64,000 nucleotides of DNA from an uncultured Candidatus Saccharibacteria bacterium (lineage in GTDB: Bacteria; Patescibacteriota; Minisyncoccia; Phycocordibacterales; WO2-35-19), in assembly GCA_964589445.1 (NCBI GenBank), contig CAZPQX010000002.1, positions 352-64,351 on the forward strand, in the 5' to 3' direction. Below the pieces are notes generated by a model. The model had not been told where the DNA came from, ran no database searches, and was given only the letters and a program-made list of their open reading frames with translations. Shown here piece by piece: positions 8,407-64,000 of the stretch; position 1 is the stretch's first letter, and each line of letters begins with the position of its first letter. The translations under genes were made by a program, and so were the position numbers.

Positions 8407-9435
8407 ATGGAATTTGACTCTCTCTTTAAATTTAAAAACTCAAAATACATTTTCATCGTTGGTATCGGTGGCTCGAACCTCGCTTCCAAGGCAGTGTGGA
8501 GCGCACTCTCTTCTCATAATCCATTTTTAAATAAAAAAGTTTTTTTTATCGAGTCTCTCTCTGAATCACAAAGGCAAGAGATCATGTACATAGCCAAGAA
8601 TGAAGTTGGTTTACCTGAAGATATTTGCATCTTTGTCATAAGTAAGTCGGGGGAGACAAGGGAGACACTCATAAGTTTTAGTGGCCTGATTTCTATTTTT
8701 AAAAATATTTTGGGTACTAATATTTTTGAAAGGGTGGTGTGCATTTCGGAAAGAGACTCGAGGCTCTTTGTTGAGTCGCAGAAAGAAGGTGCATTATGCC
8801 TACCTTGGCAGCAGCAAGTGGGCGGCAGGTGGAGTGCTTTCACTACTGCACACACAGCAGTACTCTTTGTGCTTGGGGTGGATATAAACTCGTATTTGGC
8901 GGGGGAGAGGGAAATGATAGAGGTGTGTAGAGAAAAGGGCTACCACAAAGGGCTCGCAGAAAATATTTTTGAAAATTATAAAAATGGGAAGATAGTTTTG
9001 GATTTCTTTTTGTTTGATGCGCGGCTCGAGACTTTGGGCAAGTGGCTGAGGCAGCTCTTTGCAGAAAGTTTGGGCAAGCAAGGGATAACGGGTGAGAGGG
9101 TAGGGCTTTTGCCTACAGTTTCTCTCGGCCCTACTGACCTACACTCGATGCTGCAGCTATATCTTGGCGGACCGAATAATAGGTTTACCATTTTTGTAAA
9201 AAATGAAAGCGAGCAGGGGTTTGACTATGGTGCGTGCCTCGAGACAGAAGCGGCTTATCAAAATGCGAGTCTGCCTTTTACTGACTACAAACTGTCGGGA
9301 GTAAACGAAAAGGAAATTGCTAAGTTTATGAGATTTTTTATGAATGTGGTGCTCGAGCTTGCTACTCTTTTCAAAGTCGACCCATACGGCCAACCGGAGG
9401 TAGAAAAATATAAACAGCAGATAAAAAATAAATAA
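8407..9435 (+). CDS. pgi: glucose-6-phosphate isomerase (short archaeal/CPR-type)
   Basis: IGIGGSNLASKAVW and FVISKSGETRETL PGI signatures. Confidence 0.8.
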   Translation: MEFDSLFKFKNSKYIFIVGIGGSNLASKAVWSALSSHNPFLNKKVFFIESLSESQRQEIMYIAKNEVGLPEDICIFVISKSGETRETLISFSGLISIFKNILGTNIFERVVCISERDSRLFVESQKEGALCLPWQQQVGGRWSAFTTAHTAVLFVLGVDINSYLAGEREMIEVCREKGYHKGLAENIFENYKNGKIVLDFFLFDARLETLGKWLRQLFAESLGKQGITGERVGLLPTVSLGPTDLHSMLQLYLGGPNNRFTIFVKNESEQGFDYGACLETEAAYQNASLPFTDYKLSGVNEKEIAKFMRFFMNVVLELATLFKVDPYGQPEVEKYKQQIKNK

Positions 9436-16593: not shown

Positions 16594-19500
16594 ATGAAAA
16601 AAGTAACAATAAGTTTGTTGTTTGTGCTCTCTCTATTTGGTTTATTTTCTCCAAATTTTGCAAGTGCGGAGAATGTTTTTGTGTCAGGTGCTATCACTTC
16701 TGATACGACCTGGGTGTCTTCAAATGTGTATGTGATCAATAGTAGTTTTTCTGTGGACCTTGGGGTCACTTTGACCATAAGCCCGGGGACTGTGATAAAG
16801 GCTAGGAACACAGGTGCTGGAGGTCCTAGTATTTACGGCAGTTTGATTGCTTTGGGTACAGAAGAGAGCCCGATAATTTTTACTTCTTCAAATGATGACA
16901 GTTTCTCTGGAAGCTTAGATGAATACGAGAGTGTGGGTAGCCCCGGTGATTGGCAGGGTTTGTATTTTAAGCCTGGCTCTACTGGGAAATTTGACCATGT
17001 CCATCTTTCGTATGGTGGGTACGGCGGCTCGGGGTACGGTAATTTTGTAGGTATAGAAAATGATGGTGGAAATGTAGAAATCAAAAATTCTAAGATTTTT
17101 GATAATCACAAAATAGTCTCAAACGGAGCCGGAGGTGTGATGACTGCAGGAAGTGGAGTTTCCAATAAATCAGGAGATCTTTCTATTCAAAATTCTGTGA
17201 TTGAAAATAGTATGGTTGGGGTGAGGGTCAGCGCAGGCAATATTTCTATATCCGGAACTACTTTTAGAAATAATGTTGATAGTACGGGCCAGGGAAATGG
17301 GTATGGTATTTATACTTCTGGGTCTGATTCTCTAACTCTTTTGAATAATGTTTTTGAAGGCAATAAAAGAACTGCTCATATCCGTGTTGCACCCAACTTT
17401 GTGCATGGTGGGAATATGAGTAATGATCAGACTAACAGAGGTTTTGAGATAGACGGTGATTTGTCCGGGGAGGTCGTTCTGTCTAGTGGAGATATCCCTT
17501 ATATAGTGGGACATCTGATCATAAATCCTTCTGGCAAAATGGTCGTTGAACCAGGGGCAATTTTGAAGATGAATGATTTTGTCGCTTCGGGTGCGATTTA
17601 TGTGAACGGGGGAATTTTAGAATTTCGCGGTACTCCAGAAAATAAAATTTACATTACATCACTCCGAGACGATACTATTGGAGGGGACACAAATGGGGAC
17701 GGTGACCTCACTCTTCCTGCTCTCAAAAATTGGGCTTCTATATTTTTAGAAAATGGCTCGAATGCTTTGTTTGAAAATGTGGAGCTTGGTTATGGAGGGT
17801 ACAATTGGAATGGTGAATATTTAAATATTGGTGCTGCTATATATCAAAGAGGTGCTGAACTTTCTATAAAGAATTCTGTTTTTCATCACAATAGGACAGC
17901 GGATATTTTTACAGATGGAGGAAATACACAAATTTTTGGTAGCGAATTTGAGGGTAGTGATTATGGTATTTGGTCGCGAGGCGGCAGTACCACTGTATCA
18001 AACTCTAGCTTTACAAATCATGTTGGCCTTGGTGTTTATGGCGAGTCGGGGCCACAAGTGGATGCCAGGAATAATTGGTGGGGGAGTATTGATGGGCCGA
18101 AAGATACTTCAGATCCAAATCCGACGGGCAACGGAGATAAAATCCAGGGTAATGTAAATTACGCACCATTTCTCACTTCATGGCCCCCTTCGACAGAAAA
18201 AGTTATCAACCCGGTGATTATTGTTCCGGGGATTATGGGGTCTGCTTACAAAAATGGAAATTGGGTGATAGATCCTGTTTTTCATGTTTATGACAATTTG
18301 ATCGAAACGTTAGAGAAAAATGGATACACAAAAGGAGAAAATCTGTTCCCTTGGGGGTACGATTGGAAAAATTCAAATACAGAAAGTGCGTTACTCTTGA
18401 AGCAAAAAATTGATGAGATAAAAAATATATGTGGTTGTGAAGAAGTTGATATTGTCGCTCACTCTATGGGCGGTCTTGTAACTAGGGCATATGTCCAATC
18501 TGAAAATTATGAAAACGATATTGATCAAATTATTTTCTTAGGCACTCCACATAGAGGGGCGCCGAAAGATTATTTAACTTGGGAAGCGGCAGAACTTTCA
18601 CCGGATGCTTTTAATTTTTTTATAGAATCTCATTATAAGAAAGAAGCCAAAAAGTTAGGGTACAGTAACCTTTTCGAATATATCCATGATTGGCCTATAA
18701 AATCTGTGGAGGAACTCTTGTCGACTTCAAATTACTTGTACAGTGCTACTAGCAGCCAAACCTTAATTTATCCAATGGGCTACCCACGCAACATATTTCT
18801 GGAAAATTTAAACCAAGGGATTGTTGCTTTTCTTGAAGAAGATATTGATATTGCAAATATAATATCTAAAGCAAAGGACACTATAACGGGACTGAGGGTT
18901 GTTAATTCAAACAAACTTCCTTTGTGGCAACATGGCTACCCAGAAAATTATGACAGTAATACGGGAGACAAGGGTCTTATATTCGGTCTAGGTGATGGTA
19001 CTGTACCAGAGATAAATGCTTCTTTGGGCGAAAGAGTGGATATTTTTATATCCTCTGATCATGTTAATCTTCCTACAGATGCGATGGAAGAAATATTTGA
19101 TGAAATACATGGGGGAGAATTGGTAGACCCCGTAAAAACTTCTTTGCCACTTAAAATTTTGTTTGCCAAGATATTTTCACCAGCTGATTTTGTAATAATT
19201 GCTCCTGATGGGAAGAAGGTTGGAAAGAACTTCTCGACTGGACAGGAAATAAATGAAATACCAGGATCTTTCTACTCTGGATTTGACGGAGATGATGAAT
19301 ACGTGACCATCCCCGACCCAATGGACGGGGAATATAAAATTGAGCTTCAGGGAACTGGCTCGGGAGGGTCTTATCGTTTTGAGACTACCTACATAACAGA
19401 AGCTACTTCTACAACTGCCGAAGTTTCGGGGGTTACTGCACCAAATCAAATTACCAATCTTAAGGTTGGTATTGATAGTGAAAAACCAAATCAAACAAAA

Positions 19501-19785
19501 ATTGAAAAAGAAGTGACTTTGGATGTTTTGATATCTGACATAAATATGGCGTACAATTTGGGTTGGATAAAGGATGTAAAAGTAAAAAATGATTTGGTAA
19601 AAAAAGCTAAACTTCTTATAAAATTTGAAAAAAGAAGGAATGGAAAGTACGAAAAAGTGGTAGATAAATTGACAGTCATACTAGTTGATTTGGAGCTGGA
19701 TTTACTTCTTAAAAAAGGAAAGATAAATAAAGATGCTAGAGATTTATTAAGAAAAGATTTAAAATACATTATCAATAACAATTAA
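16594..19785 (+). CDS. large secreted multidomain protein: parallel beta-helix repeats, lipase/esterase domain and PPC-like domain
   Basis: Signal peptide. PbH1 repeats (NSKIFDNH..., NSVIENS...). VAHSMGGLV GxSxG lipase motif. Beta-sandwich-like C-terminal region. Confidence 0.7.
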   Translation: MKKVTISLLFVLSLFGLFSPNFASAENVFVSGAITSDTTWVSSNVYVINSSFSVDLGVTLTISPGTVIKARNTGAGGPSIYGSLIALGTEESPIIFTSSNDDSFSGSLDEYESVGSPGDWQGLYFKPGSTGKFDHVHLSYGGYGGSGYGNFVGIENDGGNVEIKNSKIFDNHKIVSNGAGGVMTAGSGVSNKSGDLSIQNSVIENSMVGVRVSAGNISISGTTFRNNVDSTGQGNGYGIYTSGSDSLTLLNNVFEGNKRTAHIRVAPNFVHGGNMSNDQTNRGFEIDGDLSGEVVLSSGDIPYIVGHLIINPSGKMVVEPGAILKMNDFVASGAIYVNGGILEFRGTPENKIYITSLRDDTIGGDTNGDGDLTLPALKNWASIFLENGSNALFENVELGYGGYNWNGEYLNIGAAIYQRGAELSIKNSVFHHNRTADIFTDGGNTQIFGSEFEGSDYGIWSRGGSTTVSNSSFTNHVGLGVYGESGPQVDARNNWWGSIDGPKDTSDPNPTGNGDKIQGNVNYAPFLTSWPPSTEKVINPVIIVPGIMGSAYKNGNWVIDPVFHVYDNLIETLEKNGYTKGENLFPWGYDWKNSNTESALLLKQKIDEIKNICGCEEVDIVAHSMGGLVTRAYVQSENYENDIDQIIFLGTPHRGAPKDYLTWEAAELSPDAFNFFIESHYKKEAKKLGYSNLFEYIHDWPIKSVEELLSTSNYLYSATSSQTLIYPMGYPRNIFLENLNQGIVAFLEEDIDIANIISKAKDTITGLRVVNSNKLPLWQHGYPENYDSNTGDKGLIFGLGDGTVPEINASLGERVDIFISSDHVNLPTDAMEEIFDEIHGGELVDPVKTSLPLKILFAKIFSPADFVIIAPDGKKVGKNFSTGQEINEIPGSFYSGFDGDDEYVTIPDPMDGEYKIELQGTGSGGSYRFETTYITEATSTTAEVSGVTAPNQITNLKVGIDSEKPNQTKIEKEVTLDVLISDINMAYNLGWIKDVKVKNDLVKKAKLLIKFEKRRNGKYEKVVDKLTVILVDLELDLLLKKGKINKDARDLLRKDLKYIINNN

Positions 19786-19788
19786 TTT

Positions 19789-20154
19789 ATGAAAAGAAAT
19801 TTATTACTATTTTTGGCTCTAGTATCAAGTTCTTCCTTAATTTCAATATTTCTAGGAGAAAAAATCAGTACCAGTTTGTTTCCTTTTGCTGGAAGTTGGA
19901 TTGTTCCATTTGAAATAATACATTTCGTAAACAGTTTTCCATTTGTCTATTATTTCCTGGCACCATTTTTGTTTTTATCTTGGGGGGAGGGTAAAAAATG
20001 GGTTTGGATAATCGTTTCTGTTTTGCCACTTGTTATTATAGAGATTTATATAGGCGCTTTTGTAGAATTTTTGAGTTTAAATCTAACCTTCTTTATTTCT
20101 GGAGTCTTCTTGTCGTTTATCACTAAATTCACAGTAGGTAAAATAAAAAAATAA
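19789..20154 (+). CDS. small multi-TM membrane protein
   Basis: 121 aa, four hydrophobic segments. Confidence 0.45.
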   Translation: MKRNLLLFLALVSSSSLISIFLGEKISTSLFPFAGSWIVPFEIIHFVNSFPFVYYFLAPFLFLSWGEGKKWVWIIVSVLPLVIIEIYIGAFVEFLSLNLTFFISGVFLSFITKFTVGKIKK

Positions 20155-20170
20155 TTGATTTTTATCTAGC

Positions 20171-20207
20171 GAAAAACCCGAGGAGTGTGTACTCGACTCG
20201 GGTCTTT
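20171..20207. terminator. bidirectional intrinsic terminator
   Basis: cccgag-gagtgtgtactcgact-cgggt with A-run upstream and T-run downstream. Confidence 0.6.
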
Positions 20208-20516
20208 GGACTATCGGGGGACGAGCTGGTTTGCGTCAAACTCAGCCAAATTTGCGCTTGCACTACTCATCACTGCGTTTGCGGTGTTGAGTGTGTTTAC
20301 AAGCAAATTTTCGCCCGCCACGAATACTTCTGACATAAGGAACTTGAGGATAATTATCGTTAACCCAAGTCCCAACGCTTTTCTCATATTATTAAAAATT
20401 GCGGGGGCTAGGTGCAAAGCTGACGAAGCTTTGCACGAGAGCTAACGACTCTCCTCCCTCCGGAGACTAGGCGCGCTTTTCGCGACCACTCTCCGGAGGC
20501 TTTCCTTATGTACCTG
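20203..20516 (-). ncRNA. candidate structured ncRNA on the minus strand (unclassified)
   Basis: Minus-strand TTGACA-N17-TATAGT promoter (20522-20550) and terminator at 20177-20202. Transcript has consecutive perfect hairpins (GCCUCCGGAGA...UCUCCGGAGG with GAAAA-looped inner stem; GUGCAAAGCU-UCGUC-AGCUUUGCAC; GAGAG-UCGUUAG-CUCUC). No downstream gene. No credible ORF. Confidence 0.4.
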
Positions 20517-20521
20517 CTTTT

Positions 20522-20550
20522 ACTATATAAGTACTTCATCTTCGTGTCAA
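20522..20550 (-). promoter_or_regulatory. near-consensus sigma70 promoter (minus strand)
   Basis: TTGACA (20545-20550 complement), 17-nt spacer, TATAGT (20522-20527 complement). Confidence 0.55.
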
Positions 20551-20617
20551 GTGGAAGTCAGTTGGATCTATCGGGCCGCTTTCTTTTTATATAAATTTTA
20601 ATTAAACTGATTTCAAT

Positions 20618-21010
20618 ATGGCTTGGGAAGACAGACCTCAAATAATTAAAGATGTTGGTTTTGACTTTAGGTGGGACTCGAAAAAGGTCTGGTCTTTAGA
20701 TGTGTCAGCTGAGAAAATGGATATGCAAGATTTGATTTGGCACTTCGACATCCCATTTTGGGAAGTGGAGGGGACAGACGACTATAATCTTAAACCCTGG
20801 GAAGTAATCGAGAACCCTGACAAACACTCTATTCACTACAAAAAGGTCCAAGAAGCCGATTTGAAATACCCGATTGATATTATGGAAAACAAAGGCAGGT
20901 GGCTTATTCTCGATGGTCTTCATCGTTTAGTAAAAGCTCATATGCAAGGACTCAAAAAAGTAATGGTCCGCAAGATCCCGAGAGAAAAAATTCCTGAAAT
21001 TTTGAAATAA
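20618..21010 (+). CDS. ParB/sulfiredoxin-like nuclease-domain protein (putative)
   Basis: YPIDIME...LILDGLHRLVKA resembles the ParB-like DGxHR motif. Confidence 0.4.
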   Translation: MAWEDRPQIIKDVGFDFRWDSKKVWSLDVSAEKMDMQDLIWHFDIPFWEVEGTDDYNLKPWEVIENPDKHSIHYKKVQEADLKYPIDIMENKGRWLILDGLHRLVKAHMQGLKKVMVRKIPREKIPEILK

Positions 21011-21053
21011 AATAAAAAAAATATAAACAAAAGCCCCGCGTATTCTGCGGGGC
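21011..21053 (-). terminator. intrinsic terminator for the 128-aa minus-strand gene
   Basis: gccccgcg-tattct-gcggggc hairpin with a long T-run on the minus strand. Confidence 0.7.
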
Positions 21054-21061
21054 CTGTATAC

Positions 21062-21448
21062 CTAGCGGCGAAAGCTGTTCCAAAGAGACGGTGCTCCGAA
21101 GGGTGGCTCCTTCTTCCACTTGATCGTCTTCCGGTTTGTAATCCAGTGAGGACGATCTGGGCGACCAAAGCCACAACCATCGAAATCTGGTGCGAGACCG
21201 TGAGTGTTCCTCGGTTGCTCCACCTTTCCTTCACGGAAGAACTTTCGTGCGATCCGAGACGCTTTACCACGAATCTCTCGTGGCCAGCGATAATCTCGGT
21301 ATTCCTTGAGAAGCTTGTCGATCTGCTCCGGTGTGCTGGCCGATGTGCCGGCGATGATGAGTTTTACATCCTTCGGGTCCACCTTCCCCTCAGCCATTTC
21401 TTCACAGCATTTGCCGAGGCTCAAACCGATCAGTCTAGTTTTACGCAT
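21062..21448 (-). CDS. GC-rich hypothetical protein (128 aa)
   Basis: AAGGAG SD 7 nt upstream of ATG. About 52% GC. Isolated on the minus strand between + strand genes. Confidence 0.5.
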   Translation of the reverse strand: MRKTRLIGLSLGKCCEEMAEGKVDPKDVKLIIAGTSASTPEQIDKLLKEYRDYRWPREIRGKASRIARKFFREGKVEQPRNTHGLAPDFDGCGFGRPDRPHWITNRKTIKWKKEPPFGAPSLWNSFRR

Positions 21449-21718
21449 ATCAATCTCCTTTGACTTTTTGTTAGAGGGTTGGGTGTTTCGAACACCCTTA
21501 CCTCAGTCTCTAGAGACCAACACGCTTACAGTAGAGGTGTTCGTTGAAAGAAAAAAATCGTCTTTGCTAGGTCATGTTAAAGAACTCCTTTCTGGGGCTA
21601 ACTAATAAACAGTATACCAAATTATATACTAAAAGTCAATATGTGTAAAGGGTAAGTAAAATAAAGATTTTTTGGCGAAAAAGTGGAGAAAAACTTTAAA
21701 ATAAAGTAGATTGTAGGA

Positions 21719-54954: not shown

Positions 54955-57900
54955 GTGCAAGGATCTCTGAATTTTGAAGGCAAAAAATATATATCAGCAA
55001 AAGATGCTGCTAAGCAATTTGGCTATACAAGTGACTACATTGGTCAGCTTTGTCGTGGTGGTAAAATAAAATCAAAGCTTGTGGGTAGGGTGTGGTATGT
55101 ACTCGAATCAGAAATATCTTCTTACAAAAAAGTTCATCTCGCTCCAGGTAGACCATCTAAAAAAAATCTTTCAAACAAAAAAACACTACACTCATCTTCA
55201 TTTAAGAAAACAAAAAAAATTGCAGATTCAAAAGAAGATGTTTTGTTAGAAAATAAAAAAGAAATTTATTTAAATTTAGAAACACCTAAAGAATCACCAA
55301 AATACAACGTATTTCCTGAAATATCTCGGGTTGCCGAGATTGATTCAAAAAAAGTCTTATATATAGAAGACAATTCAGAGCTATTCCCAACACTCAAAAG
55401 AAACATAGACCTCGAATACATAAAAAGACATGCTTTTGATAACCTAGAAAAGGCAAAAAGCGGCAAATATAAAGCGACCAAATTTGATAAAACAGTCGCT
55501 TCTTCGCTTGTGGCAGTAGTCGTACTTTCTTTGGGCACTTTTGGTCTTTTTGAAGGGTCAAATTTCATAAACAGACTAAAGACAGAGTCTCGAGGTTCTG
55601 CTTTTGAAGAAGTTTCGCTGCTCTATTCTCCTCTCGTTAGAGATATAAACAGATCTGTGGCTCAAATTTCAGAAAAAACAGGAGTTTCTAGTTCACAGTT
55701 GGCTCTCTCTGTCGCATCAGATAGCAATACAAAATTAGTTTTTGATTTTGTAAGGAATATTGGAGAAAAAGTATTTGGCAGGTTCTTTGGCAAAGAGACT
55801 GTTTTGGTGGATTCTGGCGAATCAAACACGGTAAAAACAATAGTTATAAAAGAGACTTCTTATCCTTCTGCTGCTCCCGCACAAAATACAGTATCTACCC
55901 AAGCAAAGACAGTCTTCTTACCTTCTTTTGATAAGGAATACATAAACTCACTCATCGAAGAAAAATTTGTGGCTCTCAAAAACAATTTCCTCACTAGCAC
56001 CATTGCTCCAAATGTAAACAGGTACTATGTGTCAAGACAAAATGATGAAATAGTCGGCAATATAGGAAGTGTGGTTGCCAATCTCGAAGACAGGATAGAC
56101 GATGCAATCTCAAATATATCACTCACTGACCTCAATCTTTCTACTCTTTCAGTATCAGGTACCTCTATATTCTCTGGAAATGTGTCTCTAAATGGCTCGA
56201 CCACAGCAAGCACACTCTCTGCCACGGATTGGCTTTCTGTAGGTACTACCACAAATCATGCCACTCTCACAGTGGATGGTGCTTTTTACTTGGCGCAAGT
56301 TACCCCTCCGGGAGACACATCAAACAGGCTTTACAATGACGGAGGTGATTTGTATTGGAATGGCTCTATACTCGCTGGCTCCGGAGTGGGCAATTGGTCT
56401 ACAGATGGCACTAGTGTATGGAGAGCTTCAGGAAAAGTGGGTATAGGTACATCTACTCCTTCAACAGCTTTAGTTGTTCAAGGAAATGGTCTGACTTATG
56501 TAAATACAAATACAAATGCAGGAAGTTCTACAATATCTTTTGGAGGAGGCAACAATAATCGCCCTGTCTTTAATATGGGCCCCTTGGGTACTCCAGATGA
56601 ATTTAAAATATGGAACCTTGGATATTACCAGATGGGCGCTACAAATTCACAAGGATTAGCTCTTATGACCAACAATACCAATCGCTTGTATATAACAAGT
56701 GCTGGAAATGTAGGTATTGGAACAACAAGTCCAGGTAGTTTACTACAAATAGAAGGGAACCCATCTGGAGCAATACTTACTCTAAGGAGGGCTTCAACTG
56801 CAGGGGATTTGCCAATTTACTTTACAAAATCAAATGGTGGGCTCCAGGGAGCCATAGTTTCTTATAATGCAGGAGATATTTCTCTACATACAACTGATGG
56901 GGCAGAAAAAGTCAGATTGTTAAATAATGGAAATTTGGGTATTGGCACCACATCACCATTTGCAAAACTTTCTGTCGAGTCGACTGCGGGGGCTGCACAG
57001 TTTGCTATTGGCTCATCAACCGCCACTTCTTTTATTGTCGACAAAAATGGAAATGTTGGGATTGGTATAGTGACCCCTACACAAGCATTGGATGTAGTGG
57101 GAAGCGTACAAGCTTCAGGTAGTTTCTATTCTGGAAATGGTATAGGCATATCTCCAACTCAAACTACCATGTATAGTGGCTACAATTTTGGTTGGAATGC
57201 AAACGCTACTCGCGCAGGAAGCCCTGATGTAAATCTTTCAAGGGGTGGTGTATCAAAATTGTATTTAGGCAACGGCACATTAGGTGACTTTACTGGTACT
57301 TTGATTGCGGGAAACATAGGAGTCGCTACTACTTCTCCCTCTGCAAAACTTTCTATAAAGGCGGATGGTACTGGTACTGGCAGAGCATTTACTATTTCTG
57401 ACTCTGCTGATGCCGAGAAACTCACTGTACTTGATAATGGAAGTTTGCTCTTAGGTACTGGCTCACAGCTAGCAAGCTCGGGCAAGATAAGATTGACGCT
57501 TGGTGATGGTATCAGGTGGAGGAGAAATGATTTGGTAAATGATATGGGCATTACATACGATGCATCAGGTTCTTTTTGGTACGGTACAGCATCTTCTTCA
57601 TCTGCTCCTTTCCTTATAAATTCAAGCGGAAATATAGGGGTGGGTATATCTAGTCCTACAAGCCTTTTGACCTTGTATGGTGCGAGCCAGACCATCACAC
57701 TTCAAAATCCAACTACAGGTAGTACTGTAAGTGATGGCTACTACTTGGGGCTAGGTGCCGGCACCACAGATATGTATTTGTGGAATAGAGAGAGTGGTGC
57801 TGTCTATTTTGGTCAAAACAATGGTACTGTTATGACTTTAAATAATGGGAATGTCGGTATTGGTACTACGACTCCAGTGACCAAACTTACAGTTTATGGT

Positions 57901-60900
57901 ACTTCAGCTGATGCTTCTGCTTTGCTTGATAACGGCATATTTACAGTAAGAGGAAGCAACGGAGCTTATCTCCAAATTGGATCACAGACTGGCGAGCCTT
58001 ACGGTCTATATTTGCAGGGTAAAGATAGGACAAACAATGGTACTACATACCCTATCTTATTAAATCCAGTTGGAGGAAATGTGGGTGTTGGTACCACTAC
58101 TCCTTGGGGTAAGCTTTCGATCACAAATACGGGTAGCGGCCCAAGTTTTATCGTCGAAGACAGCACATCTCCTGATGCTTCTCCTTTTGTAATAGATGCG
58201 AGTGGGAATGTGGGGGTGGGGACGGTTGTTGCAGATAACAAGCTTCATATTGTTGATACACTGGCTAGCAATTTGCGCTACGGACTTAAATTAAGCAATT
58301 CGGCAGACGGAGTAGGTGCTGCAACTGGAATTTTATTTGAAGTTCAAGGTGGTGCAGCTGGAAGAGGAAAAGGTGGTCTTATATATCAAAATGATACTTC
58401 TTTAGGTTGGAATAGAGGAGATTTTATGTTTCTACAGAATTCAACAGCTGACGCCACAAACCCTACTGCTTCTAATGCAGTACTTACTATAAAAAATAAT
58501 GGTAATGTCGGTATTGGTTCGACCTCACCATTTGCAAAACTTTCTGTTGAATCGACTGCGGGAGCATCACAGTTTGTGGTCGGGTCATCGACTGCAACGC
58601 AATTCATTGTCGACAAGAATGGGAATGTGGGAGTGGGGACTGCGAATCCAACTTCCTTGTTACAAATATACGGTCAGGGCGTTGACATTTTGCAAGTTGG
58701 TAATGGTGTAGATACAAATACAAGTTTGAATGTACAAAATAGAGCTTTGTTTGGTTATAACCAAACAAGAGCGGCTGCTACTATACAAGGCATATCAGGT
58801 AGGGGTATAGATTTTAATGTTAATAACAATACATTTGGTTCGGGTCAGGCTATGGTAATCACAAGTGCTGGTAACGTCGGAGTCGGTACCACATCTCCTT
58901 TGGGCTTGCTCTCAGTAAACGCAAATGGCCTTGCGAGCGGCGCACCTCAGTTTGTCGTCGGCTCAAGCACGGCGACAAACCTTATAGTGGCTAATGATGG
59001 AAATGTGGGCGTAGGTATGACAAGTCCTTCATACAAGCTGGATGTGAATGGAGACATAAGATACGGTGCAAACGGTACTTTGAGGATAAATGGTGCCGGA
59101 AACTTTAAATTAGATAGCGATGAACTTTTCTTTGGTGGAGGCTCTCTTGGGACGATAAAAACAAACTGGGGTGGTGGAGGCCTAAGTTTGATAGCTGGAG
59201 GCAACAATCAGACAAGTGGCGATATCTCTTTGATAACAAATACAGCTTCTGGTGATGTGACAAGACTTATAATAAAAAGTGATGGAAATGTCGGCATCGG
59301 CACCACATCACCATACGCAAAGCTCTCTGTAGTAGGAGATGCAGCAATCACTGGCAATGTGAGAGTGGCTGGGCTCACTGCTACAGGCACAGTCACTTTC
59401 TCCGGTATCACTGGCTCTGACCAGTGTCTCCAAGTAGACGCAAACGGAGTAGTCGCTGGTACAGGAAGTGCTTGCGGCTCTAGTAGTGGTGGGTCAGCTG
59501 GCGGCACATGGGCGACTACCACATCACAAGTTGCGGGTAGGTTTGTAAACTATTCACTCAACTCTACTGACCTGGTAGCGATAGGCAGCAACTCGACCAC
59601 CACAGCAGAATTTTGGTTCGACCCAAACACTTCGACTTCATATCTTTCTGGAAATGTGGGTATCGGGGTTACATCTCCAGGAAATAAATTACATATAACA
59701 GGTGGAGGTATTTCTATAGGTAACAATGCGGCTCTAACAGACAGAGGTTTGATAAGTGTACATGATTCTTCAGATGCAAGAATAAATATTACTAAGGCAG
59801 GTGTGGATGGTTATAGATTGGAAACAAATGGAACTGCTGGTTCTTCTTATTTCACTATTGGAAGGGATAATGGAAGCTCTGATACTGGTAGTACTAATGC
59901 ATTTTTGAATATAACTCAGGCAGGCAATGTGGGCGTTGGCTCTACCACTCCAATGGATAAATTAACTGTTGTGGGAGGGGACATAAGTCTTTCAAGAAAT
60001 CAATACATTAGATTTAGATCTGAATCCTCTTCTATACAATCAGCAGCTATAGGTGGCACTTCTAGCAACGATCTTGCTTTTTACACAAATGGCCTAGCTG
60101 AAGGTATGAGACTTACTTCTTCTGGATATTTGGGTATTGCCTCTACTTCTCCTTGGGGGCTCCTATCCGTTAACCCAAATGGACTTTCAAGCGGCGCACC
60201 ACAATTCGTCGTCGGCTCAAGCACAGCTACCAACTTCATTATTGCGAATAATGGAAATGTGGGTGTGGGTATCACAAACCCAACTGCAAAATTAGATGTG
60301 AACGGTTCAATCTATTTGAGAACCGGGAGTTTTTTCTCAGATACTTATAGTGGTTATTCTGGAGGTGCTGTTACTCACAATATTCCATCAAGTTCATATT
60401 TGAGGTTTGTTATGGGTTCTCCAACTTCCTCTTTCCAAATACAAGATTCTTCTGCTGTGCCTCTATTAAAAATGGAAGCAAACGGAAGATTGGGGCTTGG
60501 AAGCAGCACCCCTTGGGCACAACTTTCAGTCCACCGAAATACTTCTGACACATCATACTCTCCACTCTTCGCTATCGCTTCTTCGACTGCTAGCGGCACG
60601 ACGACAAACTTCATTGTGGCAAATAATGGGAATGTCGGCATCGGGACTACTAATCTAACTGATAACTTAACCCTTAAACCATCATCAGCAGGTAAGGGAA
60701 TGGTGGTAAGGGAATCAGACGATGGTAATGAAGCAATTAGACTACTTGGTTTTTCTGGTGGTGGAAATCTAAGCCTCCAAACTGGAGGAGTAAATACAAT
60801 TAGCTTTGATGCCACAAGTGCCTCAGGGATATCATATTTTAATGCTGGGAATGTCGGCATCGGCACTACTACACCAAATAGGAAACTAACTGTATTTTCT

Positions 60901-63900
60901 GATTCTACAGTAGGGCAATCTCAATTAAGACTTGGTTTTAGTGATCAATTCTCTTGGGATATAGGAAGAGACAACGGTTCTTCTGATGGTAGATTGATGT
61001 TTACAAGTAATCACAATGGTACAACAGCAGAAAGAATGTCAATTTTATCAAACACCGGCAATGTAGGTATTGGTACTACATCCCCTTGGGGCTTGCTATC
61101 CGTAAATGCAAACGGACTTTCAAGCGGTGTGCCTCAATTTGTAGTCGGCTCATCTACAGCGACAAACTTCATTGTGGCGAATGGTGGGAATGTAGGTATA
61201 GGTACAGCAGAACCTACAGAAAAATTATCAGTAAATGGCAATATTCAAATTCCTTCAGGTAGTGCTATTCGTCTTTCGTCACTAGCAGGAAGCCCCCAAA
61301 TATTCTCATCTGGTTCCACAAATATTAGTATCAGCCCTGCCTCAAATGGAACTGTGGTACTTGGCTCTGTTGCGGGTATAAAAGCAGGAGTTGGTACTAC
61401 AACGCCATTTGGTGCACTTGCAGTTAACAGTATTGCTGGTGTGCCTGGATTTACTGTTGGCTCATCAACAGGAACATACTTTATTGTCGACAAGAATGGA
61501 AATGTGGGTGTGGGGACGACGAGTCCATTCAGTCATTTTGAGGTTCAAGGTTCCGGGATATATGACGCATACAATACTATTACCGCATCAGGAGGGAATC
61601 AGGCGGCATTATATATCAGACGTGTACAATCGGGAGGTTCGTATAACAACGGCTGGACTTGGTATATTCCTGCTTCATCTAAAGATTTGCGGCTTTATGG
61701 CGACGCGGGCGGGGATTTGTTAACGGTGCAATCAACTACCGGTAACGTGGGTATTGGTACTACAAGTCCTTCGTCGGCTTTGCATGTTTCTAACTCAAGT
61801 GCCAATCCTCTGCTAACATTTGAGAGGCCTGGTGTTTCGACTGTTAATTTTGGGAATTCTGGTTCTGTTTGGACATGGTCTTCAAGTGCGGCATCTGCAA
61901 ACCACTTTGCATTTGCGCCAGCTGGAGTAGAGGCGATGAGGATACAAAATGGTGGCAACGTCGGTATCGGTACTACAGCTCCAGGAGACAAGCTTGAAGT
62001 TTCTGGAAATGTTTTTGCTTCAGCCTTCAACTCTACAAGTACTGTCTCTAGGTATAATTCAATTGGTGGAGTATTTATGGCAGGAAATGGTGGAAGTTCT
62101 TATGCTGAAATACGAGCCTACTCAGATGTTGCTGGTACTGGAAAGATTTTGTCTCTAAATTCAAATGGTGGCAATGTCGGTATTGGTACTACAAGTCCAA
62201 CCAATACACTAGCTATTTCAGGTATTGGTCTTGATATAAATCGTGATGGTGCAGAGCCTAATGTTGTATTTAGATCAACTGGGGCACAAGTTTCTCAGAT
62301 TAGAGGACTAGTCGGTGGTGGTTTGAGATTTACAAACGGTAATTCAAGTTCTGAATGGGCAAAAATTGATTCTAGTGGAAATTTTGGTGTTGGTTCTTCT
62401 ACTCCTTGGGGACTCCTCTCTGTAAATGCAAATGGGCTATCTAGTGGCGCACCACAATTCGTAGTCGGTTCATCTACAGCAACCAACTTTATCGTGGCGA
62501 ATGGTGGAAACGTTGGTGTAGGATTGCTCAGCCCAAGTTCAAGACTTGATGTCCAAGGTGTGGCTGGTGCAACTAATATATTTAGAGTTGCCTCTTCTAC
62601 TGGCTCTGATCTCCTCACTGTAGATAAGGCGGGAAACGTTTGGATAGGTACGACAGTTGTAGAACAAAGGACTCTTACTCTCCAAGCTACTGACCCTGTA
62701 TTTTATTTGAAATCATATGGAGGTTCTTCTGCACAAATTAAATATGACGGGGGATCTACTTTCACTTTGACTGACGGAACAACAAACATTTTGCAATTTA
62801 ATAATTCTGGAAGCGGTAATGATATTGATATTGTCGCTAGAAACAGTTCTGATTCTGATATTGGTTTTAATACAGGAAATGGGCAAAGAAGAATGACTGT
62901 AAAATATGATGGAAATGTCGGCATCGGTACTACTACACCACAAACCAAGCTTGTTATTTACGATACTGATTATGCGACAAACAACAGAGCCAACTTAGAG
63001 ATAATGACTTCTTCTAGTCAGGCGGCTGGCGTAGGAGGTTCGATTGCTTTTGGTGGCAGAAATGATCAGGGTACTTCTCCTTCAAATAGTCCATATATTT
63101 TTGGAAAAATAGAAGGTATAAGTGAGGGCTCAACTGGCTGGGCTGGTGCACTTGCATTTTCTACTACAGAAGGAAGTTCGGGTATTACAGAAAAATTGAG
63201 AATAACTAGTGCAGGTTATACAGGTGTGGGTTCTTCTACACCTTGGGGACTCCTCTCCGTCAATGCAAATGGACTATCTAGCGGAGCTCCTCAGTTTGTC
63301 GTGGGCTCATCTACAGCAACCAACTTTATCGTGGCGAATAATGGAAATGTGGGAGTAGGGACTGCTAGCCCATCTCATAAGTTAACTTTGGCCAGTGGAA
63401 ATTTTGCAGTCGAAACCGGAAACATGTATTTAGCTTCTGGTAATAGTATTCATTTTGATTATGGTTCAAGTAATAGTTATTACATCCAAAAGAATGGAAC
63501 TAACTTATATCTTGGTACTGGCGGAAGTTTTGCAATGATGAATGGTAATGTAGGTGTCGGCACCACAACACCAGGTGACTTACTTACACTCTCATCTCTA
63601 AACCCAAGAATTGATTTGTGGGCAAATACTTCTACTTCAACTAGAGTGGCTTTGACTTCTTATGGAAACCTAGGATTTGCAACTTTGCAAACTAGAGGTG
63701 CTTTTGGTTTGAGACTCGGTACAAATAGTGGTGAACATTTGAATATAGATACTTCAGGTAATGTAGGTATTGGGACGTCATCACCAACTTACTTGTTAAA
63801 TGTTGTAGGTGCTACTGGTGGAGTTTCTGGAATCACTACACAAAATACCAGTGCCTCATCGTATGGTATGCTTAATGTCTTTAACAAAGGAGCAAAGGGT

Positions 63901-64000
63901 TTAAATGTTTACGCTCTCGGTTCTACATACGGCAACACCTTCTTTGGTGGGGTTACTGGGAATAACCAATTGGTACTTGAGGCAAATTCAGGAACTAGTA
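54955..64000 (+). CDS. giant cell-surface protein (>3,015 aa, 3' partial): N-terminal excisionase-like HTH, single TM, then about 30 tail-fibre-like G-N-V-G-I-G-T-T-S-P repeats
   Basis: Uninterrupted frame from GTG 54955 (in-frame TAG at 54952) to the window end, verified codon by codon for the first 700 nt and spot-checked downstream. Not in the ORF track because no stop falls within the window. All listed minus-strand ORFs from 55266 to 62948 are its antisense shadows. Confidence 0.8.
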   Translation, partial: MQGSLNFEGKKYISAKDAAKQFGYTSDYIGQLCRGGKIKSKLVGRVWYVLESEISSYKKVHLAPGRPSKKNLSNKKTLHSSSFKKTKKIADSKEDVLLENKKEIYLNLETPKESPKYNVFPEISRVAEIDSKKVLYIEDNSELFPTLKRNIDLEYIKRHAFDNLEKAKSGKYKATKFDKTVASSLVAVVVLSLGTFGLFEGSNFINRLKTESRGSAFEEVSLLYSPLVRDINRSVAQISEKTGVSSSQLALSVASDSNTKLVFDFVRNIGEKVFGRFFGKETVLVDSGESNTVKTIVIKETSYPSAAPAQNTVSTQAKTVFLPSFDKEYINSLIEEKFVALKNNFLTSTIAPNVNRYYVSRQNDEIVGNIGSVVANLEDRIDDAISNISLTDLNLSTLSVSGTSIFSGNVSLNGSTTASTLSATDWLSVGTTTNHATLTVDGAFYLAQVTPPGDTSNRLYNDGGDLYWNGSILAGSGVGNWSTDGTSVWRASGKVGIGTSTPSTALVVQGNGLTYVNTNTNAGSSTISFGGGNNNRPVFNMGPLGTPDEFKIWNLGYYQMGATNSQGLALMTNNTNRLYITSAGNVGIGTTSPGSLLQIEGNPSGAILTLRRASTAGDLPIYFTKSNGGLQGAIVSYNAGDISLHTTDGAEKVRLLNNGNLGIGTTSPFAKLSVESTAGAAQFAIGSSTATSFIVDKNGNVGIGIVTPTQALDVVGSVQASGSFYSGNGIGISPTQTTMYSGYNFGWNANATRAGSPDVNLSRGGVSKLYLGNGTLGDFTGTLIAGNIGVATTSPSAKLSIKADGTGTGRAFTISDSADAEKLTVLDNGSLLLGTGSQLASSGKIRLTLGDGIRWRRNDLVNDMGITYDASGSFWYGTASSSSAPFLINSSGNIGVGISSPTSLLTLYGASQTITLQNPTTGSTVSDGYYLGLGAGTTDMYLWNRESGAVYFGQNNGTVMTLNNGNVGIGTTTPVTKLTVYGTSADASALLDNGIFTVRGSNGAYLQIGSQTGEPYGLYLQGKDRTNNGTTYPILLNPVGGNVGVGTTTPWGKLSITNTGSGPSFIVEDSTSPDASPFVIDASGNVGVGTVVADNKLHIVDTLASNLRYGLKLSNSADGVGAATGILFEVQGGAAGRGKGGLIYQNDTSLGWNRGDFMFLQNSTADATNPTASNAVLTIKNNGNVGIGSTSPFAKLSVESTAGASQFVVGSSTATQFIVDKNGNVGVGTANPTSLLQIYGQGVDILQVGNGVDTNTSLNVQNRALFGYNQTRAAATIQGISGRGIDFNVNNNTFGSGQAMVITSAGNVGVGTTSPLGLLSVNANGLASGAPQFVVGSSTATNLIVANDGNVGVGMTSPSYKLDVNGDIRYGANGTLRINGAGNFKLDSDELFFGGGSLGTIKTNWGGGGLSLIAGGNNQTSGDISLITNTASGDVTRLIIKSDGNVGIGTTSPYAKLSVVGDAAITGNVRVAGLTATGTVTFSGITGSDQCLQVDANGVVAGTGSACGSSSGGSAGGTWATTTSQVAGRFVNYSLNSTDLVAIGSNSTTTAEFWFDPNTSTSYLSGNVGIGVTSPGNKLHITGGGISIGNNAALTDRGLISVHDSSDARINITKAGVDGYRLETNGTAGSSYFTIGRDNGSSDTGSTNAFLNITQAGNVGVGSTTPMDKLTVVGGDISLSRNQYIRFRSESSSIQSAAIGGTSSNDLAFYTNGLAEGMRLTSSGYLGIASTSPWGLLSVNPNGLSSGAPQFVVGSSTATNFIIANNGNVGVGITNPTAKLDVNGSIYLRTGSFFSDTYSGYSGGAVTHNIPSSSYLRFVMGSPTSSFQIQDSSAVPLLKMEANGRLGLGSSTPWAQLSVHRNTSDTSYSPLFAIASSTASGTTTNFIVANNGNVGIGTTNLTDNLTLKPSSAGKGMVVRESDDGNEAIRLLGFSGGGNLSLQTGGVNTISFDATSASGISYFNAGNVGIGTTTPNRKLTVFSDSTVGQSQLRLGFSDQFSWDIGRDNGSSDGRLMFTSNHNGTTAERMSILSNTGNVGIGTTSPWGLLSVNANGLSSGVPQFVVGSSTATNFIVANGGNVGIGTAEPTEKLSVNGNIQIPSGSAIRLSSLAGSPQIFSSGSTNISISPASNGTVVLGSVAGIKAGVGTTTPFGALAVNSIAGVPGFTVGSSTGTYFIVDKNGNVGVGTTSPFSHFEVQGSGIYDAYNTITASGGNQAALYIRRVQSGGSYNNGWTWYIPASSKDLRLYGDAGGDLLTVQSTTGNVGIGTTSPSSALHVSNSSANPLLTFERPGVSTVNFGNSGSVWTWSSSAASANHFAFAPAGVEAMRIQNGGNVGIGTTAPGDKLEVSGNVFASAFNSTSTVSRYNSIGGVFMAGNGGSSYAEIRAYSDVAGTGKILSLNSNGGNVGIGTTSPTNTLAISGIGLDINRDGAEPNVVFRSTGAQVSQIRGLVGGGLRFTNGNSSSEWAKIDSSGNFGVGSSTPWGLLSVNANGLSSGAPQFVVGSSTATNFIVANGGNVGVGLLSPSSRLDVQGVAGATNIFRVASSTGSDLLTVDKAGNVWIGTTVVEQRTLTLQATDPVFYLKSYGGSSAQIKYDGGSTFTLTDGTTNILQFNNSGSGNDIDIVARNSSDSDIGFNTGNGQRRMTVKYDGNVGIGTTTPQTKLVIYDTDYATNNRANLEIMTSSSQAAGVGGSIAFGGRNDQGTSPSNSPYIFGKIEGISEGSTGWAGALAFSTTEGSSGITEKLRITSAGYTGVGSSTPWGLLSVNANGLSSGAPQFVVGSSTATNFIVANNGNVGVGTASPSHKLTLASGNFAVETGNMYLASGNSIHFDYGSSNSYYIQKNGTNLYLGTGGSFAMMNGNVGVGTTTPGDLLTLSSLNPRIDLWANTSTSTRVALTSYGNLGFATLQTRGAFGLRLGTNSGEHLNIDTSGNVGIGTSSPTYLLNVVGATGGVSGITTQNTSASSYGMLNVFNKGAKGLNVYALGSTYGNTFFGGVTGNNQLVLEANSGTS

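Follow-up and report, generated by a model that had tools for sequence, protein, structure and literature searches.

The stretch examined here is a 64,000-nucleotide (nt) window, analysed over its full length, from contig CAZPQX010000002.1 of an uncultured Candidatus Saccharibacteria bacterium, and the element of interest lies on its minus strand between positions 20,550 and 20,171, where an original prediction had placed a stand-alone, structured, non-coding RNA. The locus comprises a sigma-70-type promoter, a GC-rich leader of ~125 nt that is conserved and covarying among relatives, a 58-codon open reading frame (ORF), and an intrinsic terminator (Table 1). As predicted, the promoter (TTGACA-17-TATAGT) is near consensus, with 11 of 12 matches, and was the top-scoring site in a scan of 2 kilobases (kb). 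Transcription would, from the position of this promoter, start at ~20515, giving a minus-strand RNA of ~345 nt that runs from ~20515 to ~20171. A promoter in the sense orientation was found at an equivalent distance in 16 of the 18 copies of the locus compared below, the end of the -10 box lying 134-163 nt 5' of the ATG. The terminator of the original prediction is present as a hairpin (20207-20172) with a U5 run, and a consensus terminator scanner gave no call for it; in the other loci aligned or inspected, a terminator is also present, with the base of the stem kept and the apical part variable. No minus-strand gene follows: the nearest downstream ORF (19789..20154) is convergent on the plus strand, so that the transcript is monocistronic.

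Table 1 Features of the small-protein locus, in coordinates of the window.
Feature	Position	Strand	Description
sigma-70-type promoter	20522..20550	-	-35 TTGACA 20550-20545; 17-nt spacer; -10 TATAGT 20527-20522
Helix A, 5' strand	20502..20511	-	ACAUAAGGAA; few nt from the 5' end; partner is codons 16-19
Hairpin P1	20457..20499	-	Invariant base CCUCCGGA...UCCGGAGG, an anti-Shine-Dalgarno-like arm pairing with a Shine-Dalgarno-like arm
Helix B, 5' strand	20452..20456	-	GAGGA, part of GGAGGGAGGAG; partner UCCUC 20350-20346, codons 14-15
Hairpin P2, local	20437..20453	-	GAGAG-UCGUUAG-CUCUC
Helix C, 5' strand	20439-20449	-	GUCGUUAGCUC, P2 loop region; partner GGGUUAACGAU 20366-20356, codons 8-11
Hairpin P3	20412..20436	-	GUGCAAAGCU-UCGUC-AGCUUUGCAC; inverted repeat, 10/10 pairs
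P4, imperfect AU-rich hairpin	20368..20408	-	Start codon at the boundary of loop and 3' stem
ORF, 58 codons plus TAG stop	20211..20387	-	ATG 20387; codons 20387-20214; stop 20213-20211; product MRKALGLGLTIIILKFLMSEVFVAGENLLVNTLNTANAVMSSASANLAEFDANQLVPR
ORF part pairing with leader	20333..20366	-	3' strands of helices C, B, and A
Helix A, 3' strand	20333-20342	-	UUCCUUAUGU, within the ORF
Helix D / 3' ORF domain	20211..20324	-	Codons 23-26 (~20324-20313) with the last codons and stop (~20225-20211); further hairpins inside
Intrinsic terminator	20172..20207	-	A-tract, stem CCCGAG...CUCGGG, U5 run 20176-20172

The original prediction had seen no convincing ORF in this transcript, and here it did not hold. 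We compared 18 copies, i.e., the window and 17 homologous loci from metagenomes and from metagenome-assembled genomes (MAGs) of Saccharibacteria, Zambryskiibacteria, and Paceibacteria. The ORF is open in all 18 copies, at 51-63 codons, and every relative keeps it as a protein. Changes are most frequent at third codon positions, both in the N-terminal half (424/291/887 at first, second, and third positions) and in the C-terminal half (1557/1168/2097), and the invariant residues A5, V22, F23, A25, V31, and A37 are each written with three or four synonymous codons. Insertions and deletions (indels) among relatives are in frame within the ORF, and the reading frame upstream of the ATG is unconserved. 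This comparison establishes, at the level of sequence, that positions 20387-20211 are a protein-coding gene for a conserved small protein, and the element as a whole is kept across Patescibacteria.

Relatives of this protein proved to be widespread. An initial protein search returned a single relative (85% identity), the contig of which aligns with the window through promoter, leader, ORF, and terminator. Scans with a back-translated pattern yielded four loci among GTDB genomes (three from MAGs with a Saccharibacteria label, one from Zambryskiibacteriota) and three loci in JGI metagenomes, while a profile search gathered 37 protein clusters, all of them "hypothetical" and none with a Pfam domain. 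An exhaustive HMMER search extended the family to 288 clusters (at 50% identity) with E ≤ 1e-3, including 67 with E ≤ 1e-10, and a family search of viral contigs gave no match. Wherever the sources in the protein searches name an organism, it is Zambryskibacteria or Paceibacterota; the family is uncharacterised, and its named members are all Patescibacteria. Members are 47-68 residues long once mis-called N-terminal extensions are excluded, and share a strongly conserved motif, A-[IL]-G-L-G-L-x-I-[IL]-I-L-K-x-L, followed by a patterned C-terminal tail. In the N-terminal half, basic residues precede a hydrophobic stretch, and AlphaFold2 returned one long helix spanning residues 2-53, with a predicted local distance difference test score (pLDDT) of 77, so the product is predicted to be a small hydrophobic membrane protein with a single helix. 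No relative was found in Pfam, NCBIfam, PADLOC, or PHROGs, and the single match in the PDB is a designed helical repeat.

Three other potential reading frames at this locus were considered and rejected. A 43-residue ORF at 20408..20539 starts inside the promoter, upstream of the expected transcription start. A TTG-extended, 68-residue version of the small protein is unconserved, since the frame 5' of the ATG is shifted by indels. A GUG-initiated upstream ORF of 14 codons following the GGAGG tract has an immediate stop codon in homologous locus L001. The leader also leaves a trace in protein databases, where gene calls for at least three entries (P0007, P0017, and P0018) are wrongly extended N-terminally into it; the string "VSGGRR" in extended calls is a translation of the leader sequence GUCUCCGGAGGGAGG or UCCGGAGGGAGG. 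Many of the HMMER matches of 80-140 residues likewise carry a leader-derived N-terminal extension. Given these extended calls, and since the window copy is itself absent from the protein collection, the family is under-annotated. Gene callers often miss the ORF or extend it into the leader, and the covariance model built here could serve to annotate the family.

The coding signature also bears directly on the idea that this is a free-standing structured RNA without coding function, possibly a diverged RNase P RNA, transfer-messenger RNA (tmRNA), or signal recognition particle (SRP) RNA. In its favor are the strong promoter and terminator, the exceptional folding of the transcript, and the fact that RNase P RNA, tmRNA, and SRP RNA went undetected anywhere in the window. 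Such ubiquitous RNAs missing from a stretch of 64 kb are, however, unremarkable, and Rfam 15 at gathering score detected no family in the whole window, including RNase P, tmRNA, SRP, and riboswitch leaders. Relaxing the threshold to E ≤ 10 across 20100-20620 gave only two chance-level matches (a flavivirus repeat and WT1-AS) and no RNase P, tmRNA, or SRP RNA. Ten homologous loci were likewise without Rfam match, and ARAGORN reported neither transfer RNA nor tmRNA in the window. The echoes of the RNase P elements CR-I and CR-II noted in the original prediction fared no better: the "CR-II-like" string GGGCGAAAAUUUGCUUGUAAACACACUCAACACC is simply codons 25-36 of the small protein. Resemblance to bacterial RNase P RNA is limited to a GC-rich, multi-hairpin transcript of roughly 350 nt, whereas there is no covariance-model match, neither a P4 pseudoknot nor the core formed by CR-I to CR-V was recognised, and half of the present molecule is conserved coding sequence. 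Judged by the substitution pattern in 18 copies, the non-coding reading is refuted, and we assign it next to no probability. What stands of the original description is an RNA that is stand-alone, promoted, terminated, and structured; what falls is its non-coding nature. What looked like a non-coding RNA has turned into a small-protein family that is new and widespread in Patescibacteria, and its conserved mRNA structure is new as well; both the protein family and the RNA structure are absent from Rfam, Pfam, NCBIfam, and the PDB.

This mRNA is indeed highly structured. The whole transcript has a minimum free energy of -149.7 kcal/mol (z -9.3 relative to dinucleotide shuffles), and both the leader folded alone (z -5.5) and the remainder of the transcript (z -5.9) contribute, while the opposite strand folds more weakly (-140.9 kcal/mol, z -7.5). 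Across relatives we observed a conserved order of elements, namely promoter, AUAAGGAAAG, P1, GAGGAG, P2, P3, a C-rich run, an AU-rich stretch, the AUG, the ORF, and the terminator, which is kept in 17 of the 18 copies, the exception being locus L002.

The P1, P2, and P3 hairpins of the original prediction are all present, P3 with a perfect stem, and each has its own pattern of conservation. P1 combines an invariant base (CCUCCGG/CCGGAGG) with an apex that is hypervariable in sequence and length; its helix is 99% paired and covaries both in its outer part and towards the apex (GC/CG/UA at columns 30/67; columns 38-40/57-59). Each of the 14 core leaders, folded in isolation, gives P2, the two arms of which covary as GAGAG/CUCUC, GAGGG/CCCUC, and GAGGU/GCCUC. 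P3 is built from at least eight unrelated stem sequences among the 14 core sequences, all of which are hairpins of 9-10 base pairs. The P3 loop (20422-20426 in the window) nevertheless keeps GUC in all core homologs despite wholly different stems between lineages, and it is possible that this GUC makes a tertiary or kissing contact, e.g., with GAC/GAU in codons 7-8. Downstream, P4 includes an invariant C-rich run (CCCCC, 20407-20403) and covaries between leader and codons 2-3, as in CUUCGUAU/AUACGAAG in L003 and UUCGAAU/AUUCGAA in L011. No Shine-Dalgarno (SD) sequence is adjacent to the AUG. Between P1 and P2 lies an invariant purine tract, GGAGGGAGGAG (20461-20451), that is found a single time in the window and in each of the 12 loci carrying it.

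Beyond these local hairpins, three long-range helices connect the leader to the first third of the ORF. Helix A is an inverted repeat with all 10 pairs formed, and it covaries (AU/UA, CG/GC/UG, UA/GC), so that its strands read GACAGAAGGAA/UUCCUUCUGUC in L007 and GGUAAGGAA/UUCCUUAUC in L013. In the former, a codon change from AUG to CUG is accompanied by a leader change from U to G, and in the latter a change from AUG to AUC by a leader change from C to G. The codon following Met19 (UCA/UCC, AAA, AGA, or AAU) is mirrored at the outer end of helix A (GACAU/AUGUC, UUCAU/AUGAA, UCAU/AUGA). Helix C covaries as well: column pair 87/181 is AU in 7 cases and GC in 5, and codon 11 is either ACG (Thr) or AUG (Met), matched in the leader by UCGUU or UCAUU. 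The pairs of helix B, by comparison, are invariant, and hence provide no covariation evidence for this helix by itself.

Several controls argue that these helices are genuine. Unguided RNAalifold on 14 sequences predicts helices A, B, and C together with P1. Standard pairs are formed in 95.7% of alignment cells, vs. 37-51% when the partners are slid by 1-3 columns, pairs changed on both sides number 12, vs. 3-6 in the slid controls, and none of 500 shuffles reached the observed pairing and double-change values. Individual minimum-energy folds of the homologs, including the distant L008 and L016, give the same architecture, with long-range closure gaining 5-24 kcal/mol over the best local-only fold. 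A covariance model based on 14 sequences recovers L008 over its full length (53.7 bits), and L016 and L017 at ~22.5 bits each. Codons 14-18 (ATC CTC AAG TTC CTT) show zero synonymous variation across 15 sequences. Read from these aligned relatives, the covariation shows an RNA structure under selection, with long-range helices that enclose the AUG in a compact domain. The leader co-evolves with codons of the protein's hydrophobic helix, i.e., RNA and protein constraints share the same nucleotides, and amino-acid changes (T/M at codon 11, S/K/R/N at codon 20) are answered by changes in the leader.

The fold is also not unique. P2 overlaps helices B and C, and the two arrangements thus represent mutually exclusive conformations, both of which are under selection. 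P2 has a signal of its own, as position pair 82/93 covaries independently (A82-U93 vs. G82-C93); since position 82 is unpaired in the closed fold, this covariation is explained by the local P2 hairpin only. The 3' half of the ORF forms another structured region: from codon 21 to the stop, folding is stronger than expected in 14 of the 18 homologs (z -3.9 to -5.9). Helix D, 73% paired vs. 36-60% in slid controls, has moderate support as the closing helix of this 3' domain.

A leader of this kind stands out against the translation background of its genome. Among the 37 ORFs of at least 180 codons in the window, an SD-like motif (-22..-4) was found for only 4, and several genes (e.g., those with ATGs at 8407, 22773, 28062, 38279, and 48327) have a TATAAT-like box ending 7-10 nt 5' of their ATG, which suggests that leaderless mRNAs may be widespread. 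A 125-nt GC-rich leader is exceptional in such a near-SD-less genome. With SD sites nearly absent and several genes looking leaderless, initiation should depend on an open start region. Opening the region from -15 to +15 of the small-protein gene would cost 13.0 kcal/mol, compared to 7.0 ± 3.0 kcal/mol for 32 other genes (maximum 14.2), and mostly 8.5-14 kcal/mol in homologs, with 4.0 kcal/mol in L015.

Taken together, these results lead us to favor, as the most probable if by no means certain reading, a monocistronic gene for a 58-residue, single-helix membrane protein whose conserved whole-mRNA fold gates translation and stability. In this scenario, the leader would first form P1, P2, and P3, with the AU-rich P4 carrying the AUG. 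Once ~19 codons were transcribed, the 5' end would pair with codons 16-19 (helix A), and the purine tract and P2 region would then pair with codons 8-15 (helices B and C). The start region would be closed into a compact domain, the rest of the ORF would form a second domain closed by helix D, and the terminator would follow. As initiation should need an open start region, the closed fold would keep an abundant, stable mRNA poorly translatable until it is remodelled, possibly through a switch to the competing P2, through loss of the helix A 5' strand by processing, or through a trans-acting factor. The case is relevant to the poorly understood control of translation in genome-reduced bacteria whose initiation does without SD sequences.

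Some observations weigh against this gating. The energy for opening the start is only ~2 standard deviations above the genome mean, three other genes reach a similar value, and homolog L015 is at only 4.0 kcal/mol. Helices A, B, and C start at +22 and leave the AUG itself uncovered, and an AUG at the tip of a weak AU-rich hairpin might be accessible. Neither strand varies in helix B or at the bases of helix A and P1, which therefore offer no covariation evidence, and such invariant tracts could instead reflect a sequence-specific function, e.g., protein or ribosome binding. Finally, the promoter is the sole basis on which the transcription start is placed.

In one alternative the fold would be a stabiliser only, in which the 5'-terminal helix and the compact structure would protect the abundant mRNA of a housekeeping small membrane protein from 5'-dependent RNases, with translation unregulated. 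The near-consensus promoter, the position of helix A only ~4-14 nt from the expected 5' end, the location of the SD-like GGAGGGAGGAG tract far from the AUG, in STAB-SD fashion, the potentially accessible AUG at the tip of its weak hairpin, and the broad, conserved protein family would all fit. Yet stabilisation alone would not call for pairing with 12 codons of the ORF, which every ribosome must unwind, nor for keeping P2 as a covarying alternative incompatible with those helices. The SD-like tracts are buried in helices instead of lying exposed, and most genes of the genome have a more accessible start region. We consider this explanation rather unlikely. Less likely still is a dual-function RNA that would act as a trans riboregulator or protein sponge while also serving as the small-protein mRNA, as in RNAIII/hld and SgrS/SgrT, two known examples of dual-function RNAs. 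Structure throughout the transcript, including the 3' half of the ORF, and the conservation of purine-rich and pyrimidine-rich tracts and of the GUC loop motif beyond the need for pairing are consistent with it, but most conserved nucleotides are accounted for by intramolecular pairing that covaries with the ORF, and no target can be proposed. Moreover, the protein itself is under clear purifying selection, and distant members keep the peptide motif with other codons. Slightly below this we would place a leader sensing a ligand or temperature (riboswitch or RNA thermometer), for which one could cite a long, conserved leader with several stems and two alternative conformations, and a weak AU-rich start-codon hairpin that could melt with temperature. 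Here the absence of any Rfam family match (window, locus, and homologous loci), a conservation found in stems instead of in junctions or loops able to form a ligand pocket, the hypervariable length and sequence of the P1 apex, and an alternative pairing partner that is the ORF itself and not an expression platform all point the other way.

A more specific version of the gated-mRNA reading is that of a type I toxin-antitoxin module, in which the small protein would be a membrane toxin, the primary transcript translationally inert owing to its long-distance interactions, and the antitoxin a cis-antisense RNA; by analogy with known modules, we regard this as possible but tentative. Described hallmarks of type I toxin mRNAs are a primary transcript that cannot be translated, long-distance interactions, and metastable hairpins (PMC6733600; also PMC13000454). 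Features of the locus in keeping with such a module are a protein of <60 residues with a predicted single helix and a hydrophobic N-terminal stretch, a strong promoter, a long structured 5' untranslated region (UTR), an interaction between 5' end and ORF, a competing and possibly metastable hairpin, and a stand-alone arrangement with variable neighbours, one copy (L002) being disrupted by an IS3 element. The candidate antitoxin RNA would start inside the ORF, cross the start codon and the leader, and terminate at the antisense form of P1 followed by CUUUCCUUAU. A promoter-like site in antisense orientation (C[TG]GACA-16-AATTAT, TATTAT, or AAGAAT) is found at +30..+33 in 11 of the 18 loci; it is weak (8-10 of 12 matches) and absent from the other 7, and because it falls within sequence constrained by coding and by helix A, its recurrence does not represent independent evidence. 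The antisense "terminator" does not have the clean U-run of the sense terminators of these genomes, and in the window and most loci with called neighbours, space is too cramped for a divergent or downstream small RNA (sRNA) gene.

The distribution and sequence of the protein also count against a toxin. There is one copy per locus, and in a broad family of 288 clusters, a conserved motif and a patterned tail could just as well be due to a specific partner. Homology to known toxins was not detected: the protein matched no described toxin family (e.g., Hok, Ldr/Fst, TisB, Ibs, TxpA, or AapA) in Pfam, NCBIfam, or PADLOC, and comparison of TisB with the family profile reached an hhalign probability of only 5.6%. 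A full-text literature search for papers that combine "type I toxin-antitoxin" with Patescibacteria had no result, and further searches on Saccharibacteria and the Candidate Phyla Radiation (CPR) returned nothing on the present element. With some reservation, the locus could be the first type I toxin-antitoxin-like module in the CPR, i.e., a conserved membrane peptide silenced by its mRNA fold (leader-ORF pairing and a metastable hairpin) in organisms without SD-led initiation, with a cis-antisense antidote; a toxic peptide would bring type I toxin-antitoxin biology into this group.

The genomic context of the family is variable. The gene retains its promoter and terminator in loci with different neighbours, synteny is only loose and lineage-level (YchF; flavodoxin_2/ROK/PGI), and no constant partner gene was found among the neighbourhoods of the examined loci. 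No second copy was detected in the window by BLASTN, a six-frame hidden Markov model search, a motif search, or the covariance model, or in any locus by the covariance model. In the exceptional copy L002 (Saccharibacteria MAG contig CAZVUY010000003.1, 1834-2960), an IS3-family element with two minus-strand genes (orfA with HTH_Tnp_1 at 2655-2906 and orfB with rve at 1834-2655) replaces the promoter, P1, P2, and half of P3, while the small ORF remains intact. Around the window copy, a GC-rich stretch adjoins the locus on the minus strand (21031-21450; up to 55% GC vs. 40% overall), which contains a 128-residue ORF without Pfam match (21062..21448) and a terminator-like hairpin (21055..21031), and may be another of the GC-rich RNA candidates of the original prediction. 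Two genes downstream of the small-protein gene, on the plus strand, lies a gene for a 1063-residue protein (16594-19785) whose N-terminus resembles a signal peptide and whose central domain is an alpha/beta-hydrolase of the lipase/LCAT type (Pfam LCAT, 1.6e-16). Finally, the region from ~53.5 to 64 kb, seemingly ORF-free, holds on the plus strand (~55500-64000) a single stop-free frame of >~2800 codons running off the end of the window; this giant ORF was missing from the ORF list because it is cut by the window boundary, and is unrelated to the small-protein gene.

Comparison with characterised mRNAs helps to place this element. The ompA 5' UTR and the cryIIIA STAB-SD are 5' UTR mRNA stabilisers, and resemble the present leader in their 5'-proximal helix, an SD-like tract far 5' of the start, and a strongly expressed monocistronic mRNA; in contrast to both, the SD-like tracts here lie within helices, and between leader and ORF there is extensive, covarying pairing. 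Among toxin mRNAs, tisB/istR-1 encodes a small helical membrane peptide behind a long structured 5' UTR, and a short ILILK-like motif is common to both peptides. This likeness is not significant given the low hhalign probability cited above, so we rejected it as a sign of relationship, and we recognised neither an SOS box nor a processing site or IstR-like sRNA at the present locus.

Closer parallels are provided by hok/sok of plasmid R1 and by aapA1/IsoA1 and aapA3/IsoA3 of Helicobacter pylori (PMC6733600), which share with our locus a small hydrophobic protein of <60 residues whose gene has a separate promoter and terminator, a long structured 5' UTR with a long-distance interaction (a predicted lock in our case) and a competing local hairpin, duplexes between anti-SD-like (CCUCC, UCCUC, UUCCUU) and SD-like (GGAGG, GAGGA, AAGGAA) sequences, a compact and presumably stable transcript, and a variable neighbourhood. 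Unlike these systems, the long-distance partner is here ORF codons 8-19 and not the 3' end, the host is essentially SD-less, the AUG has no SD to sequester, and only a weak, non-universal antisense promoter-like site is available as an antitoxin candidate. Nor is there sequence homology to Hok or AapA, and the present gene belongs to a broad Patescibacteria family with one copy per locus. In timP/timR (PMC13000454), another small membrane protein, competing long-range and local RNA interactions are similarly proposed to set translation with no obligatory nuclease step. The long-range interaction of timP, however, activates by freeing the SD, whereas the present helices appear to close the start region, and we identified no pseudoknot and no sequence relationship. 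Compared to known cis-acting mRNA folds that gate small hydrophobic proteins, the present one is thus distinctive in pairing the leader to codons of the protein's own hydrophobic helix, in an SD-less background and with no evident antitoxin.

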